Source: a virus
Taxonomy: Duplodnaviria; Heunggongvirae; Uroviricota; Caudoviricetes
Virus record (IMG/VR): IMGVR_UViG_2563366875_000003
DNA length: 39,855 bases
Reading direction: 5' to 3' (one strand)
Of the stretch, positions 4,104 to 37,575 are shown piece by piece. The notes beneath the pieces are model-generated. The model was not told where the DNA came from. It saw only the letters and a program-made list of their open reading frames with translations, and did no database searches. Position numbers and translations under genes: made by a program. Each line of letters opens with the position of its first letter. The stretch's first letter is position 1.

Positions 4104-4108
4104 CCGTT

Positions 4109-5245: not shown

Positions 5246-5380
5246 AAGAAGATTTCCAATAATCAGAACAAGTCGGCTCCTGTTTAGTTACGAGCGACAT
5301 TGCTCCGTGTATTCACTCGTTGGAATGAATACACAGTGCAGTGTTTATTCTGTTATTTATGCCAAAAATAAAGGTCACTA

Positions 5381-5651: not shown

Positions 5652-5775
5652 ATATCACCTTAAATAGTGGATAGCGGTAGTAAAGATTGTGCCTGTCTTT
5701 TAACCACATCAGGCTCGGTGGTTCTCGTGTACCCCTACAGCGAGAAATCGGATAAACTATTACAACCCCTACAGT

Positions 5776-6330
5776 TTGATGAGTATAGAAATGGATCCAC
5801 TCGTTATTCTCGGACGAGTGTTCAGTAATGAACCTCTGGAGAGAACCATGTATATGATCGTTATCTGGGTTGGACTTCTGCTTTTAAGCCCAGATAACTG
5901 GCCTGAATATGTTAATGAGAGAATCGGTATTCCTCATGTGTGGCATGTTTTCGTCTTTGCTCTTGCATTTTCGCTAGCAATTAATGTGCATCGATTATCA
6001 GCTATTGCCAGCGCCAGATATAAGCGATTTAAGCTAAGAAAACGCATTAAGATGCAAAACGATAAAGTGCGATCAGTAATTCAAAACCTTACAGAAGAGC
6101 AATCTATGGTTTTGTGCGCAGCCCTTAATGAAGGCAGGAAGTATGTGGTTACATCAAAACAATTCCCATACATTAGTGAGTTGATTGAGCTTGGTGTGTT
6201 GAACAAAACTTTTTCCCGATGGAACGGGAAGCATATATTATTCCCTATTGAGGATATTTACTGGACTGAATTAGTTGCCAGCTATGATCCATATAATATT
6301 GAGATAAAGCCAAGGCCAATATCTAAGTAA
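5776..6330 (+). CDS. sieB: Superinfection exclusion protein B (SieB), membrane protein
   Basis: 184-aa ORF with hydrophobic N-terminal segments, on the opposite strand between ral and N as in lambda. Confidence 0.8.
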   Translation: MMSIEMDPLVILGRVFSNEPLERTMYMIVIWVGLLLLSPDNWPEYVNERIGIPHVWHVFVFALAFSLAINVHRLSAIASARYKRFKLRKRIKMQNDKVRSVIQNLTEEQSMVLCAALNEGRKYVVTSKQFPYISELIELGVLNKTFSRWNGKHILFPIEDIYWTELVASYDPYNIEIKPRPISK

Positions 6331-6654
6331 CTAAGTAAGAGGAATCGATTTTCCCTTAATTTTCTGGCGTCCACTGCATGTTATGCCGCGTTCGCCAGGC
6401 TTGCTGTACCATGTGCGCTGATTCTTGCGCTCAATACGTTGCAGGTTGCTTTCAATCTGTTTGTGGTATTCAGCCAGCACTGTAAGGTCTATCGGATTTA
6501 GTGCGCTTTCTACTCGTGATTTCGGTTTGCGATTCAGCGAGAGAATAGGGCGGTTAACTGGTTTTGCGCTTACCCCAACCAACAGGGGATTTGCTGCTTT
6601 CCATTGAGCCTGTTTCTCTGCGCGACGTTCGCGGCGGCGTGCTTGTGCATCCAT
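6331..6654 (-). CDS. N: Antiterminator N
   Basis: Internal Met of ORF 6331-6744 gives a 107-aa protein with the arginine-rich motif MDAQARRRERRAEKQAQWKAAN; first gene downstream of pL. Confidence 0.9.
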   Translation of the reverse strand: MDAQARRRERRAEKQAQWKAANPLLVGVSAKPVNRPILSLNRKPKSRVESALNPIDLTVLAEYHKQIESNLQRIERKNQRTWYSKPGERGITCSGRQKIKGKSIPLT

Positions 6655-6764
6655 CTGGATTCTCCTGTCAGTTAGCTTTGAGTAACGCGCCGTGATGCTT
6701 ATCTCCACGGTTGCTGTCTTGCAGCTGCATTTCGCGCTACTCAAAGCCTTCTGCTTTGAATGCT

Positions 6765-6796
6765 GCCCTTCTTCAGGGCTAAATTTTTAAGAGCCT
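6765..6796 (-). promoter_or_regulatory. nutL (boxB hairpin GCCCTGAAGAAGGGC plus boxA-like GCTCTTAAAAATT)
   Basis: Read on the minus strand between pL and the N start. Confidence 0.6.
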
Positions 6797-6837
6797 CACC
6801 TTCAATGGTGGTCAGTGCGTCCTGCTGATGTGCTCAG

Positions 6838-6899
6838 TATCACCGCCAGTGGTATTTATGTCAACACCGCCAGAGATAATTTATCACCGCAGATGGTTA
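6838..6899 (-). promoter_or_regulatory. oL1-oL2-oL3 operators with pL
   Basis: Three 17-bp lambda operator sites: TATCACCGCCAGTGGTA (6838-6854), CAACACCGCCAGAGATA (6862-6878), TATCACCGCAGATGGTT (6883-6899). Confidence 0.85.
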
Positions 6900-7046
6900 T
6901 CTGTATGTTTTTTATATGAATTTATTTTTTGCAGGGGGGCATTGTTTGGTAGGTGAGAGATCTGAATTGCTATGTTTAGTGAGTTGTATCTATTTATTTT
7001 TCAATAAATACAATTGGTTATGTGTTTTGGGGGCGATCGTGAGGCA

Positions 7047-7072
7047 AAGAAAACCCGGCGCTGAGGCCGGGT
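7047..7072 (-). terminator. Intrinsic terminator downstream of rexB (timm-like)
   Basis: cccggc / gccggg stem with 6-nt loop, followed on the minus strand by TTTTCTTT, immediately after the rexB stop. Confidence 0.5.
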
Positions 7073-7506
7073 TATTCTTGTTCTCTGGTCAAATTATATA
7101 GTTGGAAAACAAGGATGCATATATGAATGAACGATGCAGAGGCAATGCCGATGGCGATAGTGGGTATCATGTAGCCGCTTATGCTGGAAAGAAGCAATAA
7201 CCCGCAGAAAAACAAAGCTCCAAGCTCAACAAAACTAAGGGCATAGACAATAACTACCGATGTCATATACCCATACTCTCTAATCTTGGCCAGTCGGCGC
7301 GTTCTGCTTCCGATTAGAAACGTCAAGGCAGCAATCAGGATTGCAATCATGGTTCCTGCATATGATGACAATGTCGCCCCAAGACCATCTCTATGAGCTG
7401 AAAAAGAAACACCAGGAATGTAGTGGCGGAAAAGGAGATAGCAAATGCTTACGATAACGTAAGGAATTATTACTATGTAAACACCAGGCATGATTCTGTT
7501 CCGCAT
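7072..7506 (-). CDS. rexB: RexB (exclusion / abortive infection, membrane component)
   Basis: 144-aa hydrophobic ORF directly downstream of rexA in the cI operon; recognised as lambda RexB. Confidence 0.9.
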   Translation of the reverse strand: MRNRIMPGVYIVIIPYVIVSICYLLFRHYIPGVSFSAHRDGLGATLSSYAGTMIAILIAALTFLIGSRTRRLAKIREYGYMTSVVIVYALSFVELGALFFCGLLLLSSISGYMIPTIAIGIASASFIHICILVFQLYNLTREQE

Positions 7507-7521
7507 AATTACTCCTGATAA

Positions 7522-8361
7522 TTAATCCTTAACTTTGCCCACCTGCCTTTTAAAACATTCCAGTATATCACTTTTCATTCTTGCGTAGCAATATGCCATC
7601 TCTTCAGCTATCTCAGCATTGGTGACCTTGTTCAGAGGCGCTGAGAGATGGCCTTTTTCTGATAGATAATGTTCTGTTAAAATATCTCCGGCCTCATCTT
7701 TTGCCCGCAGGCTAATGTCTGAAAATTGAGGTGACGGGTTAAAAATAATATCCTTGGCAACCTTTTTTATATCCCTTTTAAATTTTGGCTTAATGACTAT
7801 ATCCAATGAGTCAAAAAGCTCCCCTTCAATATCTGTTGCCCCTAAGACCTTTAATATATCGCCAAATACAGGTAGCTTGGCTTCTACCTTCACCGTTGTT
7901 CGGCCGATGAAATGCATATGCATAACATCGTCTTTGGTGGTTCCCCTCATCAGTGGCTCTATCTGAACGCGCTCTCCACTGCTTAATGACATTCCTTTCC
8001 CGATTAAAAAATCTGTCAGATCGGATGTGGTCGGCCCGAAAACAGTTCTGGCAAAACCAATGGTGTCGCCTTCAACAAACAAAAAAGATGGGAATCCCAA
8101 TGATTCGTCATCTGCGAGGCTGTTCTTAATATCTTCAACTGAAGCTTTAGAGCGATTTATCTTCTGAACCAGACTCTTGTCATTTGTTTTGGTAAAGAGA
8201 AAAGTTTTTCCATCGATTTTATGAATATACAAATAATTGGAGCCAACCTGCAGGTGATGATTATCAGCCAGCAGAGAATTAAGGAAAACAGACAGGTTTA
8301 TTGAGCGCTTATCTTTCCCTTTATTTTTGCTGCGGTAAGTCGCATAAAAACCATTCTTCAT
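7522..8361 (-). CDS. rexA: RexA (exclusion / abortive infection sensor)
   Basis: 279-aa ORF directly downstream of cI; recognised as lambda RexA. Confidence 0.9.
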   Translation of the reverse strand: MKNGFYATYRSKNKGKDKRSINLSVFLNSLLADNHHLQVGSNYLYIHKIDGKTFLFTKTNDKSLVQKINRSKASVEDIKNSLADDESLGFPSFLFVEGDTIGFARTVFGPTTSDLTDFLIGKGMSLSSGERVQIEPLMRGTTKDDVMHMHFIGRTTVKVEAKLPVFGDILKVLGATDIEGELFDSLDIVIKPKFKRDIKKVAKDIIFNPSPQFSDISLRAKDEAGDILTEHYLSEKGHLSAPLNKVTNAEIAEEMAYCYARMKSDILECFKRQVGKVKD

Positions 8362-8473
8362 AATTCAATCCATTTACTATGTTATGTTCTGAGGGGAGTG
8401 AAAATTCCCCTAATTCGATGAAGATTCTTGCTCAATTGTTATCAGCTATGCGCCGACCAGAACACCTTGCCGA

Positions 8474-9190
<717 letters not shown>

Positions 9191-9197
9191 TTAAATC

Positions 9198-9263
9198 TAT
9201 CACCGCAAGGGATAAATATCTAACACCGTGCGTGTTGACTATTTTACCTCTGGCGGTGATAAT
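9198..9263. promoter_or_regulatory. oR3-oR2-oR1 operators with divergent pRM and pR
   Basis: TATCACCGCAAGGGATA (9198-9214), TAACACCGTGCGTGTTG (9221-9237), TACCTCTGGCGGTGATA (9245-9261); pR -35 TTGACT and -10 GATAAT overlap oR2/oR1. Confidence 0.85.
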
Positions 9264-9278
9264 GGTTGCATGTACTAA

Positions 9279-9488
<210 letters not shown>

Positions 9489-9496
9489 ATAACCCC

Positions 9497-9527
9497 GCTC
9501 TTACACATTCCAGCCCTGAAAAAGGGC
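9497..9527 (+). promoter_or_regulatory. nutR (boxA CGCTCTTACA, boxB hairpin GCCCTGAAAAAGGGC)
   Basis: Directly downstream of the cro stop. Confidence 0.6.
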
Positions 9528-9606
9528 ATCAAATTAAACCACACCTATGGTGTATGCATTTATTTGCATACATTCAATCAATTGTTATCTAAGGAAATAC
9601 TTACAT

Positions 9607-9900
9607 ATGGTTCGTGCAAACAAACGCAACGAGGCTCTACGAATCGAGAGTGCGTTGCTTAACAAAATCGCAATGCTTGGAACTGAGAAGACAGCGGAAG
9701 CTGTGGGCGTTGATAAGTCGCAGATCAGCAGGTGGAAGAGGGACTGGATTCCAAAGTTCTCAATGCTGCTTGCTGTTCTTGAATGGGGGGTCGTTGACGA
9801 CGACATGGCTCGATTGGCGCGACAAGTTGCTGCGATTCTCACCAATAAAAAACGCCCGGCGGCAACCGAGCGTTCTGAACAAATCCAGATGGAGTTCTGA
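9607..9900 (+). CDS. cII: CII transcriptional activator
   Basis: ATG at 9607 preceded by TAAGGA; MVRANKRNEALRIESALLNKIAMLGTEKTAEAVGVDKSQISRWKRDWIPKF... (97 aa). The track start at 9547 is an upstream extension. Confidence 0.9.
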   Translation: MVRANKRNEALRIESALLNKIAMLGTEKTAEAVGVDKSQISRWKRDWIPKFSMLLAVLEWGVVDDDMARLARQVAAILTNKKRPAATERSEQIQMEF

Positions 9901-9923
9901 GGTCATTACTGGATCTATCAACA
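9847..9923 (-). ncRNA. oop: Candidate OOP antisense RNA overlapping the 3' end of cII
   Basis: Minus-strand hairpin (cgctcgg / ccgggcg region) followed by TTTTTT at about 9847-9875, antisense to the cII 3' end. The 5' end is placed by analogy to lambda, not read from the sequence. Confidence 0.35.
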
Positions 9924-9932
9924 GGAGTCATT

Positions 9933-10832
9933 ATGACAAATACAGCAAAAATACTCAACTTCGGCAGAAGTAACTTTGCCGGACAGGAGCGTAATGTGGC
10001 AGATCTCGATGATGGTTACGCCAGACTATCAAATATGCTGCTTGAGGCTTATTCGGGCGCAGATCTGACCAAGCGACAGTTTAAAGTGCTGCTTGCCATT
10101 CTGCGTAAAACCTATGGGTGGAATAAACCAATGGACAGAATCACCGATTCTCAACTTAGCGAGATTACAAAGTTACCTGTCAAACGGTGCAATGAAGCCA
10201 AGTTAGAACTCGTCAGAATGAATATTATCAAGCAGCAAGGCGGCATGTTTGGACCAAACAAAAACATCTCAGAATGGTGCATCCCTCAAAACGAGGGAAA
10301 ATCCCCTAAAACGAGGGATAAAACATCCCTCAAATTGGGGGATTGCTATCCCTCAAAACAGGGGGACACAAAAGACACTATTACAAAAGAAAAAAGAAAA
10401 GATTATTCGTCCGAGAATTCTGGCGAATCCTCTGACCAGCCAGAAAACGATCTTTCTGTGGTTAAACCGGATGCTGCAATTCAGAGCGGCAGTAAGTGGG
10501 GAACAGCAGAAGACCTGACCGCCGCAGAGTGGATGTTTGACATGGTGAAGACCATCGCGCCATCAGCCAGAAAACCGAATTTTGCTGGGTGGGCTAACGA
10601 TATCCGCCTGATGCGTGAACGTGACGGACGTAACCACCGCGATATGTGTGTGCTTTTCCGCTGGGCCTGCCAGGACAACTTCTGGTCCGGTAACGTGCTG
10701 AGTCCGGCCAAACTCCGCGACAAGTGGACCCAGCTCGAAATCAACCGTAACAAGCAACAGGCTGGCGTGACAGCCGGAAAACCAAAACTCGACCTGACAA
10801 ACACTGACTGGATTTACGGGGTGGATCTATGA
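9933..10832 (+). CDS. O: Replication initiator O
   Basis: 299-aa ORF containing the origin iterons; recognised as lambda O. Confidence 0.95.
   Translation: MTNTAKILNFGRSNFAGQERNVADLDDGYARLSNMLLEAYSGADLTKRQFKVLLAILRKTYGWNKPMDRITDSQLSEITKLPVKRCNEAKLELVRMNIIKQQGGMFGPNKNISEWCIPQNEGKSPKTRDKTSLKLGDCYPSKQGDTKDTITKEKRKDYSSENSGESSDQPENDLSVVKPDAAIQSGSKWGTAEDLTAAEWMFDMVKTIAPSARKPNFAGWANDIRLMRERDGRNHRDMCVLFRWACQDNFWSGNVLSPAKLRDKWTQLEINRNKQQAGVTAGKPKLDLTNTDWIYGVDL
10281..10369 (+). repeat. ori-lambda iterons (four roughly 19-bp direct repeats) followed by an A/T-rich unwinding region
   Basis: ATCCCTCAAAACGAGGGAAA / ATCCCCTAAAACGAGGGATA / AAACATCCCTCAAATTGGGGGATTG / CTATCCCTCAAAACAGGGGGACAC, then AAAGAAAAAAGAAAAGATTATT. 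Confidence 0.75.
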
Positions 10833-11530
10833 AAAACATCGCCGCACAGATGGTTAACTTTGACCGTGAGCAGATGCGTCGGATCGCCAACAACATGCCG
10901 GAACAGTACGACGAAAAGCCACAGGTACAGCAGGTAGCGCAGATCATCAACGGTGTGTTCAGCCAGTTACTGGCAACTTTCCCGGCGAGTCTGGCTAACC
11001 GTGACCAGAACGAACTGAACGAAATCCGCCGCCAGTGGGTTCTGGCTTTCCGGGAAAACGGGATCACCACAATGGAACAGGTTAACGCAGGAATGCGCGT
11101 AGCCCGTCGGCAAAATCGACCATTTCTGCCATCACCCGGGCAGTTTGTTGCATGGTGCCGGGAAGAAGCATCCGTTATCGCCGGACTGCCAAACGTCAGC
11201 GAGCTGGTTGATATGGTTTACGAGTATTGCCGGAAGCGAGGCCTGTATCCGGATGCGGAGTCTTATCCGTGGAAATCAAACGCGCACTACTGGCTGGTTA
11301 CCAACCTGTATCAGAACATGCGGGCCAATGCGCTTACTGATGCGGAATTACGGCGCAAGGCTGCCGATGAACTGACCTGTATGACAGCGCGAATTAACCG
11401 TGGTGAGACGATACCTGAACCAGTAAAACAACTTCCTGTTATGGGCGGTAGACCTCTAAATCGTGCACAGGCTCTGGCGAAGATCGCAGAAATTAAAGCT
11501 AAGTTCGGACTGAAAGGAGCAAGTGTATGA
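10829..11530 (+). CDS. P: Replication protein P (helicase loader)
   Basis: 233-aa ORF overlapping the O stop; recognised as lambda P. Confidence 0.95.
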   Translation: MKNIAAQMVNFDREQMRRIANNMPEQYDEKPQVQQVAQIINGVFSQLLATFPASLANRDQNELNEIRRQWVLAFRENGITTMEQVNAGMRVARRQNRPFLPSPGQFVAWCREEASVIAGLPNVSELVDMVYEYCRKRGLYPDAESYPWKSNAHYWLVTNLYQNMRANALTDAELRRKAADELTCMTARINRGETIPEPVKQLPVMGGRPLNRAQALAKIAEIKAKFGLKGASV

Positions 11531-11817
11531 CGGGCAAAGAGGCAATTATTCATTACCTGGGGACGCATAATAGCTTCTGTGCGCCGGACGTTGCCGCGCT
11601 AACAGGCGCAACAGTAACCAGCATAAATCAGGCCGCGGCTAAAATGGCACGGGCAGGTCTTCTGGTTATCGAAGGTAAGGTCTGGCGAACGGTGTATTAC
11701 CGGTTTGCTACCAGGGAAGAACGGGAAGGAAAGATGAGCACGAACCTGATTTTTAAGGAGTGTCGCCAGAGTGCCGCGATGAAACGGGTATTGGCGGTAT
11801 ATGGAGTTAAAAGATGA
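11527..11817 (+). CDS. ren: Ren (Rex exclusion escape)
   Basis: 96-aa ORF MTGKEAIIHYLGTHNSFCAPDVAALTGATVTSINQ... overlapping the P stop. Confidence 0.85.
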   Translation: MTGKEAIIHYLGTHNSFCAPDVAALTGATVTSINQAAAKMARAGLLVIEGKVWRTVYYRFATREEREGKMSTNLIFKECRQSAAMKRVLAVYGVKR

Positions 11818-11842
11818 CCATCTACATTACTGAGCTAATAAC

Positions 11843-11873
11843 AGGCCTGCTGGTAATCGCAGGCCTTTTTATT
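11843..11873 (+). terminator. tR2-like intrinsic terminator
   Basis: aggcctgc / gcaggcct 8-bp stem followed by TTTTTATTT between ren and ninB. Confidence 0.5.
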
Positions 11874-11890
11874 TGGGGGAGAGGGAAGTC

Positions 11891-12331
11891 ATGAAAAAAC
11901 TAACCTTTGAAATTCGATCTCCAGCACATCAGCAAAACGCTATTCACGCAGTACAGCAAATCCTTCCAGACCCAACCAAACCAATCGTAGTAACCATTCA
12001 GGAACGCAACCGCAGCTTAGACCAAAACAGGAAGCTATGGGCCTGCTTAGGTGACGTCTCTCGTCAGGTTGAATGGCATGGTCGCTGGCTGGATGCAGAA
12101 AGCTGGAAGTGTGTGTTTACCGCAGCATTAAAGCAGCAGGATGTTGTTCCTAACCTTGCCGGGAATGGCTTTGTGGTAATAGGCCAGTCAACCAGCAGGA
12201 TGCGTGTAGGCGAATTTGCGGAGCTATTAGAGCTTATACAGGCATTCGGTACAGAGCGTGGCGTTAAGTGGTCAGACGAAGCGAGACTGGCTCTGGAGTG
12301 GAAAGCGAGATGGGGAGATCGGGCTGCATGA
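11891..12331 (+). CDS. ninB: NinB (Orf-family recombination mediator)
   Basis: Internal Met of ORF 11873-12331: MKKLTFEIRSPAHQQNAIHAVQQILPDPTKPIVVTIQERNRSLDQNRKLWA... (146 aa). Confidence 0.85.
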   Translation: MKKLTFEIRSPAHQQNAIHAVQQILPDPTKPIVVTIQERNRSLDQNRKLWACLGDVSRQVEWHGRWLDAESWKCVFTAALKQQDVVPNLAGNGFVVIGQSTSRMRVGEFAELLELIQAFGTERGVKWSDEARLALEWKARWGDRAA

Positions 12332-12855
12332 CTATCAAATCAAATACGCCAGCACACGACAAGGACTGCTGGCAAACGCCGCTTTGGCTTTTTGATGCAC
12401 TGGATATTGAGTTTGGATTCTGGCTGGATTCGGCAGCGAGCGACAAAAATGCTCTGTGTGCTCACTGGCTAACTGAGGCCGACGACGCGCTCAATTCTGA
12501 GTGGGTAAGCCACGGTGCAATCTGGAATAACCCACCGTACAGCAATATCAGGCCGTGGGTGGAAAAAGCCGCTGAGCAGTGCATACAACAGCGACAGACG
12601 GTAGTTATGCTTGTGCCAGAGGATATGTCAGTCGGATGGTTCAGCAAGGCTCTGGAGAGTGTCGACGAAGTTCGCATTATCACTGATGGACGGATTAATT
12701 TTATCGAACCATCGACAGGGCTGGAGAAGAAGGGAAACAGCAAAGGCTCCATGCTGCTGATTTGGCGACCGTTCATCAGTCCTCGACGGATGTTTACTAC
12801 CGTATCCAAAGCGGCATTGATGGCGATCGGGCAGGGCGTCAGGAGGGCGGCATGA
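12328..12855 (+). CDS. Phage orphan DNA N6-adenine methyltransferase (Dam-like, NPPY motif)
   Basis: Start at MTIKSNT (ATGA overlap with the ninB stop). Contains IWNNPPYS (motif IV, N/DPPY) and a ...CWQTPLWLF... region. Occupies the position of ninC/ninD in lambda. Confidence 0.8.
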
Positions 12856-13028
12856 GGCGACAGCGACGAAGTTTCACCGACATCATCTGCGAAAACTGCA
12901 AATACCTTCCAACGAAACGCTCCAGAAATAAACGCAAGCCAATCCCAAAAGAATCTGACGTAAAAACCTTCAATTACACAGCTCACCTGTGGGATATCCG
13001 GTGGCTAAGATATCGTGCGAGGAAATGA
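12852..13028 (+). CDS. ninE: NinE
   Basis: Internal Met of ORF 12762-13028: [58 protein letters not shown]. Confidence 0.7.
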
Positions 13029-13372
13029 CAATGGATTATTCACAGTTAAGTGATTTTGAAATTAACAGAATGGTAGGAGACATAATTTTTAAAGGCCTTT
13101 GGGCAAGTAAACCGGAAACATCAGGGAATAACACCAACAAATGGTATTACGGAAATGCTGATACAACTTTTGAGCCATTAAATCATTTGCCTGACTACTG
13201 CAATGATCCGAGCGCTTCATGGCCGATTATTGAGAAATACAGGATTTCTATCTTAGACCAGTTAACTGAATGGTGTGTGGATGCAAAAGGCGTAAGCCCA
13301 ATATTTGATACCAGACCTCTCCGCGCCGCCATGATTGTCTTTCTCCTGATGCAGGAGGCCAATAATGCTTAG
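13025..13372 (+). CDS. Hypothetical nin-region protein (NinX/DUF-type), function unknown
   Basis: Start overlapping the ninE stop (MTMDYSQL...); 115 aa. I cannot assign a family with confidence. Confidence 0.45.
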
Positions 13373-13559
13373 CCCATCTCAATCCCTTCAATACCTGAAA
13401 GGAAGCATAGAGCGGGCTTCAATGTGCACAGAGTGGATTCTATCTAGGTTTAGCGCATACAGAAGATTGCCGGTAAAGGGCATGCCAAGCAAGTCGATGC
13501 TGCATATGCAAAAGAATGCGCGCTGGAAGGTATGGCGAGAACACAGGTTATCTGGCTGA
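13365..13559 (+). CDS. Small protein with NinF-like N-terminus ([10 protein letters not shown]) and unrelated C-terminus
   Basis: 64-aa ORF whose start overlaps the preceding stop. The first roughly 20 aa resemble NinF as I recall it, but the Cys-rich NinF body is absent. Confidence 0.35.
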
Positions 13560-13578
13560 AAGAGGGGGTTATTAAGGC

Positions 13579-13941
13579 GTGAATACCTACAGCATCACAT
13601 TACCTTGGCCTCCGAGCAATAATCGCTATTACCGCCATAATCGCGGACGCACGCACATCAGCGCAGAGGGGCAGGCATACCGCGATAACGTCGCCCGAAT
13701 CATTAAAAACGCAATGCTAGATATCGGCCTGGCTATGCCTGTGAAAATCCGCATTGAGTGCCACATGCCGGATCGCCGTCGCCGTGACCTGGATAATCTG
13801 CAAAAAGCCGCTTTTGACGCACTCACTAAAGCAGGTTTCTGGCTGGATGATGCTCAGGTCGTTGATTACCGCGTTGTGAAGATGCCTGTTACCAAAGGTG
13901 GGAGGCTGGAACTGACCATCACCGAAATGGGGAATGAATGA
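13579..13941 (+). CDS. rusA: RusA Holliday-junction resolvase
   Basis: 120-aa [44 protein letters not shown]...[29 protein letters not shown], RusA family; replaces lambda ninG (rap). Confidence 0.9.
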
Positions 13942-14078
13942 TGTTTGAGTTTAATATGGCAGAACTTCTTCGCCACCGCTGGGGGCGTCTGCGCTTATAT
14001 CGTTTCCCCGGTTCTGTTTTGACCGATTACCGAATACTGAAGAATTACGCCAAAACACTGACAGGAGCAGGAGTATGA
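13938..14078 (+). CDS. YlcG-like small protein (46 aa)
   Basis: Hand translation [46 protein letters not shown]; ATGA overlap with the rusA stop. Same position as ylcG in DLP12. Confidence 0.4.
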
Positions 14079-14163
14079 AGTCAGAGATAACAATCAACTA
14101 ATACTGTTTTGTTGATTTTTGCTTGTAATTGGCGTTCTGGTCTGAGTTTTGTGGAGTAAGTTG

Positions 14164-14547
14164 ATGCGTGATATTCAGATGGTTCTTGAGCGTTGGGGAG
14201 CGTGGGCGGCTAATAATCATGAAGATGTGACCTGGTCGTCCATTGCCGCCGGTTTTAAGGGATTAATTCCTTCAAAAGTAAAATCTCGCCCGCAATGTTG
14301 TGACGATGACGCGATGATCATTTGCGGGTGCATGGCCCGTCTGAAAAAGAACAACAGCGATTTGCACGATTTATTAGTAGATTATTATGTAGTCGGTATG
14401 ACATTCATGTCACTGGCAGGTAAGCATTGCTGCTCTGATGGTTATATCGGGAAAAGGTTACAAAAGGCTGAGGGCATAATTGAAGGGATGTTAATGGCAT
14501 TAGATATCCGGTTAGAGATGGATATCGTTGTTAATAACTCTAATTAA
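14164..14547 (+). CDS. Q: Late antiterminator Q, phage 82 / DLP12 QuuD type (not lambda Q)
   Basis: Start at [26 protein letters not shown]... (127 aa), Cys-rich ([20 protein letters not shown]); recognised as the QuuD/Q82 family. Confidence 0.85.
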
Positions 14548-14580
14548 TACGCCAATTATTTACTAAAAGTTATTAAAAAT

Positions 14581-14720
14581 GGGGCGTTGAAACGCCCCCA
14601 AAAATAAAGGGTAATATATAACAGAAGGTTTGTATAGTTAGAAGCAAGGTTGTGCTTCTAAAGGAAGTGGCTTGAGGGAGCCACTTATATGTTGGGGAGG
14701 CAAAGCCTCCCACAACATAT
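14581..14720. terminator. Cluster of four stem-loops between the convergent Q and porin genes (bidirectional terminator module)
   Basis: H1 ggggcgttgaaacgccccc (U-run on the minus strand, likely the porin terminator); H2 tagaagca..tgcttcta; H3 aagtggct..agccactt; H4 a 14-15-bp stem atatgttggggaggc-aaa-gcctcccacaacatat followed by cttttag on the plus strand. Confidence 0.4.
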
Positions 14721-14735
14721 CTTTTAGTAATCAAA

Positions 14736-15818
14736 TTAGAACTGGTAAACCATACCTACAGCAACGATATCATCGGTAGCAACGCCAGATGCTTTCGTGA
14801 AATCGCTCTTATCAATCAGGTTGATTTTGTAGTCAACAAAAGTGGACATATTTTTGTTGAAGTAATAGGTTGCACCTACATCAACATATTCAACCAGGTC
14901 CTGATCACCCCAAACACCCAAGTCTTTTCCTTTAGAATGCAGGTAAGCAACGGATGGACGCAGGCCGAAGTCGAACTGATATTGTGCAACAGCTTCGAAG
15001 TTTTGTGCTTTGTTGGCAATATGGTTATTACCAAAAACAGTCATGTTCTGGGTTTCAGAATAGGTGGTGGCCAGATAGATGTTGTTCGCATCATATTTCA
15101 GACCAGCTGCCCATACTTCAGCATTTTGACCAGAAGCATTCAGACCGTTGTTACCGTAGATAACCTGATTATTAGTGCGATCAGATTTAGCATAGGTTGC
15201 ACCCACGCCGAATCCTTCATACTCATAAGTAGTTGAGAAACCGAAACCATCGCCATTAGCTTCAGTTACTTCATTTCGGTCATTTTTGCCCTGATACTGA
15301 GCTGCAAAGTTCAGGCCATCAACCAGACCAAAGAAGTCGTTGTTACGATAAGTTGCAACACCTGTGGTGCGACCAGTCATGAATACATCTGTTTGGGTCC
15401 AGGTATCGCCACCGAATTCTGGCAGAACGTCGGTCCATGCACCAATATCGTATGCTACACCGTAGTTACGGCCATAATCGATGGAGCCGTAGTCACCGAA
15501 TTTCAGGCCAGCGAAGGCAAGACGGGTTTTATCTTTGGAGGAACCTTGAGATTCAGCGCGGTTGCCTTTGAATTCATATTCCCACTGACCGAAACCAGTC
15601 AGTTGATCGTTGATTTGGGTTTCACCTTTGAAGCCAAGACGGGCATAAGTAGTATCACCATCATCTGCATCATTAGAGGAGAAGTAGTGCTTAGCATTAA
15701 CTTTCCCGTACAGATCCAGCTTGTTACTGTCTTTATTATAAATTTCAGCTGCCTGAGCAGACATCGCCATCAGTACTGATGCAGCTACAGCAGAAATTGC
15801 CACTGTTAATTTTTTCAT
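14736..15818 (-). CDS. OmpC/OmpF-family general porin (Lc / NmpC-like lysogenic-conversion moron), apparently intact
   Basis: 360-aa ORF with signal peptide [23 protein letters not shown], conserved porin N-terminus [17 protein letters not shown] and C-terminal beta-barrel signature ...VAVGMVYQF. Opposite strand to flanking phage genes with its own AT-rich upstream region. Confidence 0.9.
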
Positions 15819-16188
15819 CGTGAGCCCTTTTTTTTGAACTATTATTAAAAAATGATGTCACTGCGCGATAAATATTCATCTAATCAATGTGATTATTTCA
15901 AGATGTAAGTTTTGGTTTCTCGTTTAATTTGTGAAGTAGATCTCTATTTTTATCTGAACTTTTTTCTATCGAATCCTATTCATGGCTCTTGGCTGAATAA
16001 AAATAAATCTATTAGCCAATTTATATTAATGGCTGTTATTTATAAGTGCTCTATAATTTGAAGGTTCAATTTAAATTGGCTAAAAATAACGCTGGAAATT
16101 ATTTGTTGGTTATTTGTTGAGATTTGCTTATGTATTTGTAGTGGTGTTTTCAATACTCGGTAGCATTCTCGCAAATATCATTTAGTGG

Positions 16189-16224
16189 TTTACGTACGTA
16201 AAAAATTGGTTATGCTGTTAAGAG
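16189..16224 (+). promoter_or_regulatory. Candidate late promoter (pR'-like) upstream of the lysis genes
   Basis: TTTACG - 16-nt spacer - TATGCT on the plus strand, about 25-40 nt upstream of a strong plus-strand intrinsic terminator. Inference only. Confidence 0.25.
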
Positions 16225-16248
16225 TGGTTACTTCGTCACACAGCTTAA

Positions 16249-16271
16249 ACCCGCCGTCGAGCGGGTTTTTC
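16249..16271 (+). terminator. Plus-strand intrinsic terminator (tR'-like) upstream of the holin gene
   Basis: acccgc-cgtcga-gcgggt hairpin followed by TTTTT. No plus-strand gene lies within 1.7 kb upstream, implying a short leader transcript. Confidence 0.5.
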
Positions 16272-16407
16272 CATTTTTTGAGTCTCGATATTAGCTGATA
16301 ACCCAATACCTGAGTTATTCACTGACTCCGAGTCTGTTACGTTTCTGCTTTTTTGCGATACGTTGTATTCCCTCAATTTACACCCGCTTTGTCTGCGAGG
16401 TGGGGTT

Positions 16408-16623
16408 ATGAAATCCATGGATAAGTTAACAACGGGTGTCGCCTATGGCACCTCAGCAGGTAGTGCCGGTTACTGGTTTTTACAGCTGCTCGATAAAGTC
16501 ACGCCCTCACAGTGGGCAGCAATAGGTGTGCTGGGTAGCCTGGTATTTGGCCTGCTGACGTACCTGACAAACCTTTATTTCAAGATTAAAGAAGATAAGC
16601 GCAAGGCTGCGAGAGGTGAATAA
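16408..16623 (+). CDS. S: Holin, S21/EssD-type (class II pinholin) with dual-start MKSM motif
   Basis: Internal Met of ORF 16363-16623: [71 protein letters not shown] (71 aa, two TM segments). Confidence 0.85.
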
Positions 16624-17120
16624 TGCCTCCATCATTACGAAAAGCCGTTGCTGCTGCTATTGGTGGCGGAGCAATTGCTATAGCATCAGTGTTAATCACT
16701 GGCCCAAGTGGTAACGATGGTCTGGAAGGTGTCAGCTACATACCATACAAAGATATTGTTGGTGTATGGACTGTATGTCACGGGCATACAGGAAAAGACA
16801 TCATGCTCGGTAAAACGTATACCAAAGCAGAATGCAAAGCCCTCCTGAATAAAGACCTTGCCACGGTCGCCAGACAAATTAACCCGTACATCAAAGTCGA
16901 TATACCGGAAACAATGCGCGGCGCTCTTTACTCATTCGTTTACAACGTGGGTGCTGGCAATTTCAGAACATCGACGCTTCTTCGCAAAATAAACCAGGGC
17001 GATATCAAAGGCGCATGTGATCAGCTACGTCGCTGGACATATGCTGGCGGTAAGCAATGGAAAGGTCTCATGACTCGTCGTGAGATTGAGCGTGAAATCT
17101 GTTTGTGGGGTCAGCAATGA
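16623..17120 (+). CDS. R: SAR endolysin (GH24 lysozyme with signal-anchor-release N-terminus), R21-like
   Basis: 165-aa ORF with Gly/Ala-rich weakly hydrophobic N-terminus ([21 protein letters not shown]), then a lysozyme-like domain. Confidence 0.9.
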
Positions 17121-17578
17121 ACAGAGTAACCGCGATTATCTCCGCTCTGGTTATCTGCATCATCGTCTGCCTGTCATGGGCTGTTAATCATTACCGTGAT
17201 AACGCCATTACCTACAAAGCCCAGCGCGACAAAAATGCCAGAGAACTGAAGCTGGCGAACGCGGCAATTACTGACATGCAGATGCGTCAGCGTGATGTTG
17301 CTGCGCTCGATGCAAAATACACGAAGGAGTTAGCTGATGCGAAAGCTGAAAATGATGCTCTGCGTGATGATGTTGCCGCTGGTCGTCGTCGGTTGCACAT
17401 CAAAGCAGTCTGTCAGTCAGTGCGTGAAGCCACCACCGCCTCCGGCGTGGATAATGCAGCCTCCCCCCGACTGGCAGACACCGCTGAACGGGATTATTTC
17501 ACCCTCAGAGAGAGGCTGATCACTATGCAAAAACAACTGGAAGGAACCCAGAAGTATATTAATGAGCAGTGCAGATAG
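17117..17578 (+). CDS. Rz: Rz (inner-membrane spanin), lambda-type
   Basis: Start [48 protein letters not shown]...; N-terminal TM plus coiled coil; recognised as lambda Rz-like. Confidence 0.85.
17337..17519 (+). CDS. Rz1: Rz1 (outer-membrane lipoprotein spanin), embedded in Rz in the +1 frame
   Basis: 60-aa [26 protein letters not shown]... with lipobox LVVVGC and a Pro-rich body, fully nested in Rz. Confidence 0.8.
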
Positions 17579-17609
17579 AGCTGCCCATATCGATGGGCAA
17601 CTCATGCAA

Positions 17610-17903
17610 TTATTGTGAGCAATACACACGCGCTTCCAGCGGAGTATAAATGCCTAAAGTAATAAAACCGAGAAATCCATTTACGAATGTTTGCTGGGTT
17701 TCTGTTTTAACAACATTTTCTGCGCCGCCACAAATTTTGGCTGCATCAACAGTTTTCTCCTGTCCAATTCCCGAAACGAAGAAATGATGGGTGATGGTTT
17801 CCTTTGGTGTTACTGCTGTCGGTTTGTTTCCAACAGTAAACGTCTGTTGAGCACATCCTGTAATAAGCATTGCCAGAGCGGCAGAAAACAACATTTTTTT
17901 CAT
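17610..17903 (-). CDS. bor: Bor lipoprotein (serum-resistance / Iss family)
   Basis: Internal Met of ORF 17610-17951: MKKMLFSAALAMLITGCAQQTFTV... (97 aa, lipobox LITGC). Confidence 0.85.
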   Translation of the reverse strand: MKKMLFSAALAMLITGCAQQTFTVGNKPTAVTPKETITHHFFVSGIGQEKTVDAAKICGGAENVVKTETQQTFVNGFLGFITLGIYTPLEARVYCSQ

Positions 17904-18263
17904 CTTATTATCCTGCATTGTTAAAAACGGCAGAATCCTATGTGACAACAATTAAACGATAGTTAAATGGATTGATGAAAATTAAAACTATATAGGTGGA
18001 TGCTCAGCCTATTGGAGGAGGGGGGGCACTCAGAATCCTGTGGAATGAAATAAACCGCTCTATCTGTCCATTACCCTTTTAGCTGCGCTGTATCGTCGCC
18101 GTATTCCCGCATTAACCATGACCGTAGCCCGACGGGGAATTCCTTCTGCGTGAGTGTGCGGGAATAATCAAAAACGATGCACACCGGGTTTTACTGTGCT
18201 GACAGACGCAGGGTTACCCTCATAGTCGCTTTTCCGGTGCGATGGTGGAAGAAACCGGGATGT

Positions 18264-18458
18264 TCATCCATCATCACTTTGGATTGATGTATATGCTCTC
18301 TTTTCTGACGTTAGTCTCCGACGGCAGGCTTCAATGACCCAGGCTGAGAAATTCCCAGACCCTTTTTGCTCAAGAGCGATGTTAATTTGTTCAATCATTT
18401 GGTTAGGAAAGCGGATGTTGCGGGTTGTTGTTCTGCGGGTTCTGTTCTTCGTTGACAT
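18264..18458 (-). CDS. Small ribbon-helix-helix-like protein (64 aa) between bor and cos
   Basis: ORF MSTKNRTRRTTTRNIRFPNQMIEQINIALEQKGSGNFSAWVIEACRRRL...; basic N-terminus and RHH-like core. Function unknown. Confidence 0.45.
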   Translation of the reverse strand: MSTKNRTRRTTTRNIRFPNQMIEQINIALEQKGSGNFSAWVIEACRRRLTSEKRAYTSIQSDDG

Positions 18459-18657
18459 GAGGTTGCCCCGTATTCAGTGTCGCTGATTTGTATTGTCTGA
18501 AGTTGTTTTTACGTTAAGTTGATGCAGATCAATTAATACGATACCTGCGTCATAATTGATTATTTGACGTGGTTTGATGGCGTAGATGCACGTTGTGACA
18601 TGTAGATGATAATTATTATCATTTTTGCGGGTCCTTTCCGGCGATCCGACAGGTTAC

Positions 18658-18669
18658 GGGGCGGCGACC
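18658..18669 (+). other. cosN cohesive-end sequence GGGCGGCGACCT (cosQ upstream, cosB downstream)
   Basis: Exact lambda 12-nt cohesive end followed by CGCGGGTTTTCGCTATTTATGAAAATTTTCCGG, then the Nu1 start about 190 bp downstream. Confidence 0.85.
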
Positions 18670-34161: not shown

Positions 34162-37100
34162 ATGGGTAAAGGCAGCAGTAAGGGGCATACCCCGCGCGAA
34201 GCGAAAGATAACCTGAAATCCACGCAGTTACTGAGTGTGATTGATGCCATCAGCGAAGGGCCGGTTGAAGGTCCGGTGGATGGATTAAAAAGCGTGCTGC
34301 TGAACAGTACGCCGGTGCTGGACAGTGAGGGGAATACCAACATCTCCGGCGTCACGGTGGTGTTCCGGGCAGGTGAGCAGGAGCAGACACCGCCGGAGGG
34401 ATTTGAATCCTCCGGCTCCGAGACGGTGCTGGGTACGGAAGTGAAATACGACACGCCGATCACCCGGACCATCACGTCGGCAAACATTGACCGACTGCGC
34501 TTTACCTTCGGTGTGCAGGCACTGGTGGAAACCACCTCAAAGGGGGACAGGAATCCATCGGAAGTCCGCCTGCTGGTTCAGATACAGCGTAATGGTGGCT
34601 GGGTGACGGAAAAAGACATCACCATTAAGGGCAAAACCACCTCGCAGTATCTGGCCTCGGTGGTGGTGGATAACCTGCCGCCGCGCCCGTTTAATATCCG
34701 GATGCGCAGGATGACGCCGGACAGCACCACAGACCAGCTGCAGAACAAAACGCTCTGGTCGTCATACACCGAAATCATCGATGTGAAACAGTGCTACCCG
34801 AACACGGCACTGGTCGGCGTGCAGGTGGACTCGGAGCAGTTCGGCAGTCAGCAGGTGAGCCGTAATTATCATCTTCGCGGGCGCATTCTGCAGGTGCCGT
34901 CGAACTATAACCCGCAGACGCGGCAATACAGCGGTATCTGGGACGGAACGTTTAAGCCGGCATACAGCGACAACATGGCCTGGTGTCTGTGGGATATGCT
35001 GACCCACCCGCGCTACGGCATGGGGAAACGTCTTGGTGCGGCGGATGTGGATAAATGGGCGCTGTATGTCATCGGCCAGTACTGCGACCAGTCAGTGCCG
35101 GACGGCTTTGGCGGCACGGAGCCGCGCATCACCTGTAATGCGTACCTGACCACACAGCGCAAGGCGTGGGATGTGCTCAGTGATTTCTGCTCGGCGATGC
35201 GCTGTATGCCGGTATGGAACGGGCAGACGCTGACGTTCGTGCAGGACCGACCATCAGATAAGGTGTGGACCTATAACCGCAGTAATGTGGTGATGCCGGA
35301 TGATGGCGCGCCGTTCCGCTACAGTTTCAGCGCCCTGAAGGACCGCCATAATGCCGTTGAGGTGAACTGGATTGACCCGAACAACGGCTGGGAGACGGCG
35401 ACAGAGCTTGTTGAAGATACGCAGGCCATTGCCCGTTACGGTCGTAATGTCACGAAGATGGATGCCTTTGGTTGTACCAGTCGGGGGCAGGCACACCGCG
35501 CCGGGCTGTGGCTGATTAAAACGGAGCTGCTGGAAACGCAGACCGTGGACTTCAGCGTGGGCGCAGAAGGGCTTCGCCATGTGCCGGGCGATGTCATTGA
35601 AATCTGTGATGATGACTATGCCGGTATCAGCATCGGCGGGCGCGTGCTGGCGGTGAACAGCCAGACCCGGACGCTGACGCTCGACCGTGAAATCACGCTG
35701 CCATCCTCCGGTACCACGCTGATAAGCCTGGTTGACGGAAGTGGCAATCCGGTCAGCGTGGAGGTCCAGTCCGTCACCGACGGCGTGAAGGTAAAAGTGA
35801 GCCGTGTTCCTGACGGTGTTGCAGAATACAGCGTGTGGGGGCTGAAGCTGCCGACGCTGCGCCAGCGCCTGTTCCGCTGCGTGAGTATCCGTGAGAACGA
35901 CGACGGCACGTATGCCATCACCGCCGTGCAGCATGTACCGGAAAAAGAAGCCATCGTGGATAACGGGGCGCACTTTGACGGGGACCAGAGCGGCACGGTG
36001 AATGGTGTCACGCCGCCAGCAGTGCAGCACCTGACTGCCGAAGTTACCGCAGACAGCGGGGAGTATCAGGTACTGGCCCGCTGGGACACGCCGAAGGTGG
36101 TGAAGGGCGTGAGTTTCATGCTTCGCCTGACCGTGGCAGCGGATGACGGCAGTGAGCGGCTGGTCAGCACAGCCCGGACGGCGGAAACCACATACCGCTT
36201 CACGCAACTGGCGCTGGGGAACTACAGGCTGACAGTCCGGGCGGTAAATGCCTGGGGGCAGCAGGGTGATCCGGCGTCGGTATCATTCCGGATTGCCGCA
36301 CCGGCAGCACCGTCGCGGATTGAGCTGACGCCGGGCTATTTTCAGATAACCGCCACGCCGCATCTTGCGGTTTATGACCCGACGGTACAGTTTGAGTTCT
36401 GGTTCTCGGAAAAACGGATTGCGGATATCAGGCAGGTTGAAACCAGCGCGCGTTATCTTGGTACGGCACTGTACTGGATAGCCGCCAGTATCAATATCAA
36501 ACCGGGCCATGATTATTATTTTTACGTTCGCAGTGTGAACACCGTTGGCAAATCGGCATTCGTGGAGGCTGTCGGTCAGCCGAGTGATGATGCATCAGGC
36601 TATCTGGATTTTTTCAAAGGCAAGATAACCGAATCCCATCTCGGCAAGGAGCTGCTGGAAAAAGTTGATCTGACGGAGGATAACGCCAGCAGACTGGATG
36701 AGTTTTCGAAAGAGTGGCAGGACGCTAACGATAAATGGAATGCCATGTGGGGCGTCAAAATTGAGCAGACCAAAGACGGCAAACATTATGTCGCGGGTAT
36801 TGGCCTCAGCATGGAGGACACGGAGGAAGGCAAACTGAGCCAGTTTCTGGTTGCCGCTAACCGTATCGCGTTTATTGACCCGGCAAACGGGAATGAAACG
36901 CCGATGTTTGTGGCGCAGGGCAACCAGATATTCATGAACGACGTGTTCCTGAAGCGCCTGACAGCCCCCGCCATTACCAGCGGTGGCAGTCCTCCGGTAT
37001 TTTCCCTGACATCAGACGGGAGGCTGACGGCGAAAAATGCGGATATCAGTGGTAGTGTGAATGCGAACTCAGGAACGCTCAACAATGTCACGATTAACCA

Positions 37101-37575
37101 GAACTGTACGATTAAGGGCATGCTGGAGGCGACCCAGGTCAGAGGAGATTTCGTTAAAGCTGTATCAAAAGCCTTCCCGAAAAAAGTCGGTACGTGGGGT
37201 AACACGGAAACACCAAACGGTACGGTTACAGTCACCATCAGCGATGATCATAACTTTGACCGCCAGATTATTATTCCGCCCATTATTTTTAACGGTATAG
37301 CGTATGACGATCCGGGGAGCGGAAATAACCCAGGAGGCACGCGATACACGGGTTATGGTTTTGAAGTTCGCAAAAACGGCGTATTAATCGCATCCAGAGA
37401 AACTAAAGGGGCCATTCCCGGTAGTTACAGTGCAGTTATTGATATGCCGAGTGGCAGGGGAAGCGTCACTCTGGAGTTTAAGATTTTCCAGAAAGGCAAT
37501 CAGGGGGCAGGCAATATCACCGACTGTACGGTGATTGTGACCAAAAAAGCCGCTTCCGGCATCAGTATTCGTTGA
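34162..37575 (+). CDS. J: Central tail fibre / host-specificity protein J
   Basis: 1137-aa [57 protein letters not shown]...; fibronectin-III-like repeats and C-terminal receptor-binding region. Confidence 0.95.

Follow-up and report, generated by a model that had tools for sequence, protein, structure and literature searches.

Phage PA-2 uses the outer membrane porin OmpC as its receptor, and PA-2 lysogens lose OmpC. This phenotype, in which the phage porin (Lc) is expressed in the lysogen and OmpC is lost, has been described (PMC8065619), and Lc shares 98.9% identity with NmpC, the porin of prophage DLP12 in Escherichia coli K-12. IpeX has been described as a 167-nt RNA that is part of the nmpC/lc transcript and represses OmpC and OmpF (PMC12197685, PMC5069750, PMC3333887, and PMC7177473), and the review among these sources (PMC12197685) also mentions its processing. 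Here, we analyzed a 39,855-nt stretch of Caudoviricetes DNA (IMG/VR virus record IMGVR_UViG_2563366875_000003; hereafter, the window) that carries a porin gene of this type on its minus strand. Judging from its position between the porin stop codon and the terminator, and from its identity to the DLP12 (94.7%) and PA-2 (~95%) sequences, window segment 14575-14735 is an IpeX homologue. The seed of this 3′ untranslated region (3′UTR) is predicted to be accessible, is complementary to the ompC translation-initiation region beyond chance, and is conserved across relatives. The porin gene and its 3′UTR comprise the following features.

14736..15818, minus strand: porin gene of the NmpC/Lc/OmpD clade, 360 amino acids including the signal peptide (open reading frame [ORF] listing, Pfam, NCBIfam, PDB)
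15750-15818, minus strand: signal peptide of the porin (codons 1-23), read from the translation
14736-14738, minus strand: stop codon of the porin
14575..14735, minus strand: 3′UTR of the porin mRNA and IpeX homologue, beginning one base past the stop codon and ending with the terminator U-tract
14687..14720, minus strand: stem-loop SL1, with an AUAU...AUAU stem base conserved across lineages
14665..14686, minus strand: stem-loop SL2, with the invariant loop CCCUCA (14673-14678)
14638..14661, minus strand: stem-loop SL3
14599-14637, minus strand: unpaired stretch in the centroid fold
14607..14630, minus strand: single-stranded seed 5′-AACCUUCUGUUAUAUAUUACCCUU-3′, unpaired in the centroid fold
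14575..14598, minus strand: Rho-independent terminator (stem 14581-14598, U5 at 14575-14579)

The locus is closely matched in both described systems. The whole 2816-bp PA-2 record (J02580.1) is colinear with window positions 17310-14510 at 93.0% identity and has the order Q end, 3′UTR, lc, AT-rich region, S, R, and Rz, with the same slot and orientation in the window. After removal of IS5 and one copy of its 4-bp target duplication, DLP12 of K-12 MG1655 aligns at 94.2% over window positions 13493-17957, and its gene order (rusA-ylcG-quuD-nmpC(-)-essD-rrrD-rzpD-borD) is that of the window. These direct alignments bear out the equivalence to PA-2 lc and DLP12 nmpC proposed in an earlier reading of the same letters (hereafter, the original prediction). 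By feature, DLP12 identity is 99.5% for Q, 94.7% for the 3′UTR, 87.3% for the porin coding DNA, 97.9% for the promoter region (15819-16100), and 98.6% for the holin gene. The nmpC genes of K-12 and phage 434B are interrupted by IS5 after codon 346, whereas the window copy is intact. In sequence, slot between Q and the lysis genes, orientation, and cyclic AMP receptor protein (CRP) promoter region, the window porin has the properties expected of an Lc/NmpC lysogenic-conversion porin.

Differences between the alleles are concentrated at the exposed surface. Lc of PA-2 is 90.4% identical to the window porin (330/365), which is five residues shorter; the signal peptides are identical, one of the 148 N-terminal residues differs, and the remaining changes are concentrated in surface loops L4, L5, L6, and L8. 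The signal peptide and first 148 residues of DLP12 NmpC are identical to those of the window porin, and NmpC restored by IS5 removal shows 91.7% identity over aligned residues, or 90.4% when counted as 330/365 columns. Among the 35 columns that differ from NmpC, 28 are in outer loops L4, L5, L6, and L8, and two are in L3. Column entropy across the clade is 1.0-1.7 bits in the outer loops, compared to 0.20 in L3, 0.30 in strands, and 0.33 in periplasmic turns. This combination of a conserved channel and a variable exposed surface is usual for porins targeted by phage, colicin, and antibody. At the DNA level, the coding region (87.3% to DLP12) is more diverged than its flanks (98-99%), with changes concentrated in the loop-coding part, a pattern that would fit allele exchange by recombination or diversifying selection on the surface loops.

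The original prediction described an intact, full-length porin on the opposite strand with a signal peptide and a C-terminal barrel signature, and all of these elements were recovered. The ORF starts with ATG and runs for 360 codons with zero internal stops, and Pfam Porin_1 (PF00267) covers it in full length (residues 29-360 on profile positions 1-337/337; E 3.6e-152; 507.1 bits vs the cut-off of 23.7). The translation shows AQA/AE cleavage followed by AEIYNKD, the L3 motif PEFGGD (residues 133-138), and a terminal YQF. Porins in the PDB match at E 1e-135 to 1e-107, led by OmpK37 and OmpC variants, and an AlphaFold (AF2) model built on 42 clade members has 16 strands with helical segments in L3 at moderate confidence (mean predicted local distance difference test score 74.8; predicted template modeling score 0.73). 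With its signal peptide, modeled 16-strand barrel, L3 PEFGGD motif, and C-terminal aromatic residue, the protein has the hallmarks of a general bacterial porin. It is very likely, in a joint judgment that also covers the promoter, the 3′UTR anatomy, and the reported repression of OmpC and OmpF, that the product belongs to the classical trimeric general porins with 16 strands, and trimeric-channel function is predicted for the window allele by analogy. NmpC channels in lipid bilayers were reported by Hindahl et al. (1984), as cited in PMC8144880.

The phylogeny against OmpC, OmpF, PhoE, and NmpC suggested with the original prediction was built by neighbor-joining and groups the window porin with NmpC, Lc, and OmpD, outside OmpC, OmpN, PhoE, and OmpF. 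The earlier label of an OmpC-family porin holds in the broad sense, but this is not OmpC proper: identity is 63.6% to K-12 OmpC (62-67% across K-12 OmpC, OmpF, PhoE, and OmpN) vs ~90% to Lc and NmpC. Identities to Salmonella and Citrobacter OmpD are 81-82% and 78-80%, respectively. The window porin passes the NCBIfam ‘porin OmpC’ subfamily model (515 vs 484 bits), which evidently covers the NmpC/Lc/OmpD clade as well, and fails the PhoE and OmpF equivalog models. A host ompC gene, or a chimera with ompC, was ruled out by the 63.6% identity and the phage context; the chromosomal order ftp-ompC-micF-rcsD expected of an ompC orthologue is absent, and the surroundings are Q and holin genes of a lambdoid phage.

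The porin cassette is an already known element: a classical, widespread, previously sequenced NmpC/Lc element of lambda-like phages. Window positions 14400-16700 are 100% identical to Escherichia phage ev243 (LR597639 / NC_049955), and positions 1-18658 match ev243 26905-45560 at 99.8%. The exact porin protein is present on at least 1000 public contigs, labeled ‘porin OmpD’ or ‘outer membrane porin protein LC’; IMG/VR holds ~460 relatives, of which the best 80 are 98-100% identical; and 2465 of 5426 complete E. coli genomes hold at least 80% of cassette 14548-16407. As a textbook lysogenic-conversion gene, already known from a published phage and carried by about half of the E. coli genomes sequenced, the porin alone brings nothing new. 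Strains with an intact cassette have an altered porin set (NmpC up, OmpC down), the significance of which is already recognized: the altered set bears on antibiotic permeability, on sensitivity to phages and colicins, and on how laboratory strains such as MG1655 and NCM3722 compare. The lead worth passing on is the defined 15-nt antisense seed against the ompC ribosome-binding site (RBS), together with a conserved, mobile family of IpeX-type 3′UTRs. Neither the IpeX pairing site nor such a 3′UTR family is described in the accessible literature, which does not include the primary IpeX paper, and there is no Rfam family.

Folding of the 169-nt 3′ region gives three stem-loops and a terminator at -58.5 kcal/mol (z = -7.7 vs dinucleotide shuffles). 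The original prediction had seen hairpins flanking the gene, and they are present on both sides (the three stem-loops and terminator on the 3′ side, and a plus-strand hairpin at 16247-16268 on the 5′ side); it had not recognized the 3′ set as the IpeX regulatory RNA. Conservation of the 3′UTR is 94-100% behind both the 360- and the 365-amino-acid porin alleles (173 IMG/VR loci). In eight divergent lineages, the SL2 loop CCCUCA is identical and the SL2 stem shows compensatory changes at six of eight positions. RNAalifold recovered SL1 and SL2, with double changes in 6 of 17 pairs. Pair-counting on an unsupervised alignment gave 79.7% paired positions, a value reached by 24 of 500 shuffles, and slid controls were all at or below 55%.

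The position of these hairpins also invites another reading, namely that they are a late-operon leader or tR′-like terminators acting on the plus strand and not a regulatory RNA of the porin strand. In H-19B and 933W, the late promoter pR′ directly follows Q, and the region directly downstream of Q is generally known from lambda, H-19B, and 933W as the usual lambdoid site of the late promoter and tR′. The window Q gene is 75-77% identical to those of H-19B and 933W across the first 333 nt, and the plus strand folds equally well (z = -7.4), with the complement of SL1 then followed by CUUUU. Hexamers suited to a Q-dependent late promoter exist (TTGAAA at 14587-14592 and TAATAT at 14612-14617), but with a 19-bp spacer and without conservation across Q alleles they are not convincing, and neither is any further late-promoter hexamer in the AT-rich region, none of which is conserved across Q alleles; a consensus promoter scanner gave no hit from Q to the holin gene. 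No promoter-like motif is kept between lineages with different Q alleles. SL2 stems pair in 61 of 64 cells on the porin-sense strand (including five G·U) vs 57 of 64 on the other strand, since U·G wobbles in SL2 are valid pairs on the porin-sense strand only and become A·C mismatches on the plus strand. Likewise, an A-U to G-U polymorphism in SL3, found in 15 of 40 distinct UTRs, leaves a standard pair on the porin-sense strand alone. The porin strand also has a well-formed terminator with a U-run, and the four-element architecture follows porins in P7-like phages (beside ssb) and in insertion sequence (IS)-flanked islands that have no Q. The strand-specific pairing of SL2 and SL3 and the retained architecture indicate that the 3′UTR element belongs to the porin unit and not to the Q/late operon. 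We consider it unlikely that the hairpins are late-operon structures instead; in lambdoid phages, one reading does not preclude the other. If pR′ follows Q in the window as well, late transcription would run antisense through the 3′UTR and the porin gene.

Complementarity to host porin mRNAs was assessed as contiguous helices in target windows -30..+15 with at most one G·U per helix, using 2000 dinucleotide shuffles as the control; L312 is missing from the helix table and L317 from the energy table. The first 15 nt of the seed (14616-14630) pair with K-12 ompC -21..-7 (AUAUAACAGAGGGUU), which includes the Shine-Dalgarno (SD) sequence, in 15 contiguous base pairs (14 Watson-Crick and one G·U; p = 0.0005), and seed positions 14607-14616 pair with ompF -14..-5 (GAGGGUAAUA) over 10 bp. 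DLP12 and PA-2 have the same seed as the window. Lineage L315 forms 13 bp with ompC (p 0.0025) and 17 bp with ompF -14..+3 (p 0.0005). L089, of the P7 type, pairs with ompF over 17 bp and with ompC -6..+5 over 11 bp (shuffle tests: ompF p = 0.0015 for a 14-bp helix with at most one G·U; ompC p = 0.03). L317 pairs perfectly with the ompC SD over 12 bp and, over 13 bp, with the ompC leader at -68..-56 (p 0.0085 for ompC, 0.018 for ompF), L310 and L314 each form 11 bp with ompC (p 0.04 and 0.02, respectively), and L186 gave p ~0.08 for ompC and ompF alike. Thus, p was <0.05 for ompC in six of seven lineages, and the controls phoE, ompN, ompA, ompX, lamB, and Salmonella ompD gave p ≥0.07 in all 42 comparisons.

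In the duplex-energy control, ompC came out as the best target for all eight UTRs (z -1.6 to -4.4), and the RBS of each UTR's own porin scored equal to or worse than shuffled sequences. Unrestricted duplex folding of the UTR against 130-nt leaders gave unrealistic long structures and was replaced by the contiguous-helix and -30..+15 duplex searches. UGAGGG, the complement of the SL2 loop CCCUCA, occurs in both the ompF SD and the ompC leader. In L186, L310, and L312, this loop together with the pairs that close it (UACCCUCAUG) matches ompF -17..-8 as a perfect 10-nt complement. The RBS of the window porin (AAAAGGGCUCACG) has neither GAGGG nor these targets. The K-12 ompC 5′UTR (L004) contains a second SD-like copy (AAUGAGGGUUAAU, ~-68..-56 from AUG) upstream of the real SD (ACAGAGGGUUAAU), and this copy is also complementary to the SL2 loop and the L317 seed.

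The window 3′UTR may be expected to repress OmpC and OmpF when transcribed, as reported for IpeX. Hfq binding, processing, and pairing-dependent repression are plausible for it from the U-tail terminator and the U-rich stretch upstream. We think it somewhat more probable than otherwise that IpeX lowers OmpC and OmpF by antisense pairing over their RBSs, in the manner of MicC and MicF. Several points weigh against such pairing. The ompF match of the window allele is non-significant when taken alone (10 bp, p = 0.10), and the duplex calculations leave out of account any internal mRNA structure that would compete with pairing. The seed also sits at a possible late promoter of the other strand, which could account for some of its conservation in lambdoid phages. 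The 2006 study of Castillo-Keller et al. is said to have reported no complementarity to the required ompC leader region and an ompC effect independent of Hfq, so the pairing mechanism conflicts with the published IpeX account or at least goes beyond it.

That reported result would favor an IpeX that acts without base pairing, through titration of Hfq or another factor or through envelope stress from porin overproduction, the complementarity being fortuitous. The reciprocal levels of NmpC and OmpC have also been interpreted as compensation (PMC8144880). A fortuitous origin is difficult to reconcile with a 15-bp helix over the ompC SD at p = 0.0005, with independent lineages that keep complementarity through different sequences while 0 of 42 controls fall below p = 0.07, and with an unpaired seed directly upstream of a U-tail terminator, which is generally known as the usual layout of Hfq-dependent 3′UTR-derived small RNAs (sRNAs). 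Action without pairing appears rather unlikely to us, and base pairing remains the account that we prefer.

Porins of the mobile clade were also found in other settings. In P7-like phage-plasmids they adjoin ssb (L089; P7 AF503408), in L186 the neighbor is a Mu-like transposase gene, and in L315 the porin lies beside IS elements and a gene of the ProQ/FinO family. Lambdoid phages that have different Q and holin types carry them as well (L310/311, L314, and L317). Their 3′UTRs are diverged beyond BLAST alignment yet have the same layout, with SL1, SL2 with CCCUCA, usually a third hairpin, an unpaired stretch with (C)CU(U)CUGUU, and the terminator. This four-element 3′UTR accompanies the porin in P7-like phages and IS-flanked islands without Q and is absent from chromosomal ompD. 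A scan of genome contigs with GTGGNNCCCTCANGCCAC for SL2 in other species gave chance matches in unrelated GC-rich genomes (15 specified bases). We tentatively propose, at slightly less than even probability, that the IpeX-type 3′UTR represents a conserved, mobile family of antisense regulators fused to NmpC-type porins, with MicC/MicF-like seeds for the ompC and ompF SDs and a CCCUCA loop; under the same joint claim, it would extend beyond a peculiarity of DLP12 and PA-2 to lambda-like phages, P1/P7-like phage-plasmids, and IS-flanked islands.

In two E. coli assemblies (L315 3515-4078, GCA_013061645; L316 2848-3411, GCA_021749545), the P0046 porin lineage with an IpeX-like 3′UTR occurs in a non-phage setting, where it is convergent with a ProQ/FinO-family RNA-chaperone gene amid IS66, IS200-like, and IS4 elements. 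A porin-plus-sRNA module adjoining an RNA chaperone gene may merit attention.

Upstream of the porin gene lies a regulatory region with the following features.

15819..16407, minus strand: AT-rich regulatory region (589 bp), homologue of PnmpC/Plc
15896-15901, minus strand: candidate -35 element TTGAAA, from sequence
15927..15947, minus strand: proximal CRP site, 21/21 identical to the J02580.1 annotation
16223..16243, minus strand: distal CRP site, 21/21 identical to the J02580.1 annotation

The AT-rich upstream sequence noted in the original prediction is real (GC 27-30% at 15800-16200 vs 45-55% in the flanks), but its extent is 15819-16407, and the end placed at 16360 corresponds to an upstream TTG of the holin ORF. 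Transcription of the porin probably starts at a G near 15861-15866, and given a start near 15866, the proximal CRP site would be centered at about -71.5, a standard class I position. In K-12, the start of PnmpC was mapped to a G, deletion of -199 to -1 abolishes the effect of the promoter, and PnmpC is described as CRP-activated, with OmpR, IHF, and MprA as repressors (PMC11677980). NmpC makes up ~2% of the proteome of NCM3722, which has an intact nmpC, and is induced by carbon limitation, whereas OmpC is >10-fold higher in an MG1655-derived strain with IS5 in nmpC (PMC8144880). The NmpC gene of LF82 prophage Perceval, 89.5% identical to the window gene in DNA, is transcribed 10-fold above the local background in the lysogen (PMC9928086).

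By analogy with these homologues, expression of the porin in a lysogen of the window phage, together with loss of OmpC, would be expected, and much of what the original prediction had posed as questions about expression and effects appears to be answered by published homologue data (PMC11677980, PMC8144880, PMC9928086, PMC5069750). What counts on the other side is that these expression data come from homologues and not from the window lysogen. The porin might then be a quiescent passenger, intact but not meaningfully expressed and without effect on the lysogen. Such a state is suggested by the word ‘quiescent’ applied to nmpC in the title of Prilipov et al. (1998), as it appears in citations, and by general knowledge of AT-rich regions as typical targets of H-NS silencing. 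It is contradicted by the abundance and inducibility of NmpC in NCM3722, by the transcription of the Perceval gene, and by the ability of PnmpC to drive the IS5 transposase in K-12 (PMC11677980). In addition, the window retains the promoter region with both of its CRP sites, and the exact protein is intact on at least 1000 contigs. A silent passenger is very improbable on this evidence, and we retain an expressed porin as our reading.

We propose that the cassette is a lysogenic-conversion element of the PA-2 lc / DLP12 nmpC type that would act as a porin swap. In the lysogen, the porin would be transcribed leftward from its own host-controlled promoter, both CRP sites of which are intact. A general porin would be made with a conserved barrel and L3 and with surface loops L4, L5, L6, and L8 unlike those of Lc/NmpC and of host OmpC/OmpF. 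The transcript would end in the 160-nt structured 3′UTR with its three stem-loops, unpaired U-rich seed, and Rho-independent terminator. We hold these three steps, taken together with the reported repression of OmpC and OmpF, to be highly probable; anatomy, homology, conservation, and complementarity are observed here, and expression and repression are drawn from the homologue literature. The 3′UTR would then lower OmpC and OmpF by pairing of the seed with their SD regions (ompC 15 bp, ompF 10 bp), and host OmpC/OmpF would be exchanged for the phage porin, giving superinfection exclusion without loss of permeability; here, we infer both the pairing and the receptor benefit. If the pairing is true, the cassette would combine, within one module, elimination of the host porin with provision of a substitute, and OmpC-dependent phages such as the window phage could exploit it to rid lysogens of the receptor that these phages themselves use.

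The receptor link comes from the tail-tip protein J.

36826..37572, plus strand: C-terminal receptor-binding part of J (gene 34162-37575), with a presumed link to the porin cassette

The last 249 residues of J are identical to phage 434 J at 241 of 249 positions (97%) and to lambda J at 57%. Phage 434 uses OmpC, and the J C-terminus sets receptor specificity (PMC11101478, PMC3509688). The window phage may likewise use OmpC as its receptor, and given the 97% J-tip identity to OmpC-dependent 434, the likely benefit of the swap is removal of the phage's own receptor class from lysogens. Three considerations count against this link: the assignment of the receptor is based on the J-tip identity, just 12 of 27 porin-carrying lambdoid phages in our collection have a 434-type J, and many phages with a 434-type J (Stx phages, mEp460) have no porin and carry stx or nothing in the slot. 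These counts indicate that the receptor link is not obligatory. A literature search for the receptor of ev243, mEp332, or mEp460 returned nothing useful. The J tip is also 98.8% identical in protein to mEp460_ev081, and ev243 matches only bases 71-747 of the segment at 97.5%; given this partial match, the window is not simply ev243, and its tail-tip region is mosaic.

Whether replacement of OmpC/OmpF chiefly serves to remove the phage's own receptor class from lysogens is, in our estimate, evenly balanced. The cassette may instead serve mainly host physiology, as a CRP-induced general porin for nutrient scavenging under carbon limitation. NmpC belongs to the carbon-limitation sector, where it is the major porin together with OmpF (PMC8144880), there are two conserved CRP sites, about half of complete E. 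coli genomes hold the cassette, often in defective prophages, and strict linkage to the 434-type J is lacking. This explanation accounts neither for a 3′UTR complementary to ompC and ompF on the mobile porins but not on chromosomal ompD nor for variation concentrated in surface loops. We see host physiology as a possible but less probable main role; it is compatible with the porin swap as a second benefit.

The genes and signals on either side of the cassette are as follows.

14164..14547, plus strand: late antiterminator Q of the QuuD type, left neighbor (PF06530, E 8.5e-54)
16408..16623, plus strand: S21-type holin with the dual start MKSM, right neighbor (PF04971, P21 holin S), with an annotated equivalent in phage 434B
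16247..16279, plus strand: terminator-like hairpin (16247-16268) and T-run, 130 bp upstream of the holin gene and adjoining the distal CRP site

The two Pfam matches confirm the slot between Q and the holin gene given in the original prediction. The window Q is a distant match to Q21 structures, and lysozyme, Rz, and Bor genes follow the holin gene. The Bor-type outer-membrane lipoprotein gene (PF06291; 17610-17903, minus strand) is located directly past Rz, as in DLP12 (borD) and phage 434B, and is a further lysogenic-conversion gene in the window. The hairpin at 16247-16268 probably shields holin gene S from stray rightward transcription out of the AT-rich region, and Q-modified polymerase would need to read through 16247-16279. 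An Rfam 15 scan of 13500-17500 at E ≤1 returned only Trp_leader at the 16247 terminator (E 0.76, a chance-level match due to the terminator shape) and no IpeX family.

Annotation of this locus is variable. We regard two further ORFs as spurious, one inside the 3′UTR (14573..14734; 53 amino acids, TTG start) and one across the porin start (15745..15879; 44 amino acids). In RefSeq ev243 (NC_049955 42648-42782; window 15745-15879, 15770-15818), the porin begins 16 codons late (344 amino acids), so that the signal peptide is cut, and a 44-amino-acid ‘hypothetical protein’ spans the true porin start; this is an annotation artefact. Elsewhere, a 1-nt difference in an A-run joins an upstream ORF in frame and leads to 385-amino-acid annotations (P0006 and P0012), which are also artefacts. 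Protein P0059 (364 amino acids, E. coli, named OmpF) has an OmpF N-terminal third and is NmpC-type from about residue 120, like the window allele; it is an apparent recombinant of chromosomal ompF and a prophage porin.

Compared to other known systems, the nearest chromosomal relatives of the window porin are the OmpD porins of Salmonella and Citrobacter (78-82%, same clade), which have another signal peptide (MKLKLVAVAV...), a context of EamA, GFA, and MFS genes, and a single plain terminator ~25 nt past the stop codon without an IpeX-like element. The nmpC gene of P7 (Punavirus; AF503408 25531-26646 = L324; also L089-L103) is of the same clade with 76.5% DNA identity to the window and has the same four-element 3′UTR, complementary to the ompF start region and to ompC, even though this UTR cannot be aligned by BLAST; its neighbors in this P1-like genome are ssb and odaA, without a Q/late-operon context. 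With regard to antisense regulators, a 12-nt word of the MicF seed (UUAUUUAUUACC) is also present in L089 and L315, with one mismatch in the window, and GUUAUAU is common to MicC and the IpeX site on ompC (-21..-7), a site that we take to adjoin the MicC target region. The likeness that we propose to MicF and MicC is antisense pairing over the SD and start region. MicF and MicC are free-standing genes for Hfq-dependent sRNAs, divergent beside ompC and ompN, whereas the regulator in the window would be the 3′UTR of the competing porin mRNA itself, moving with the porin on mobile elements.

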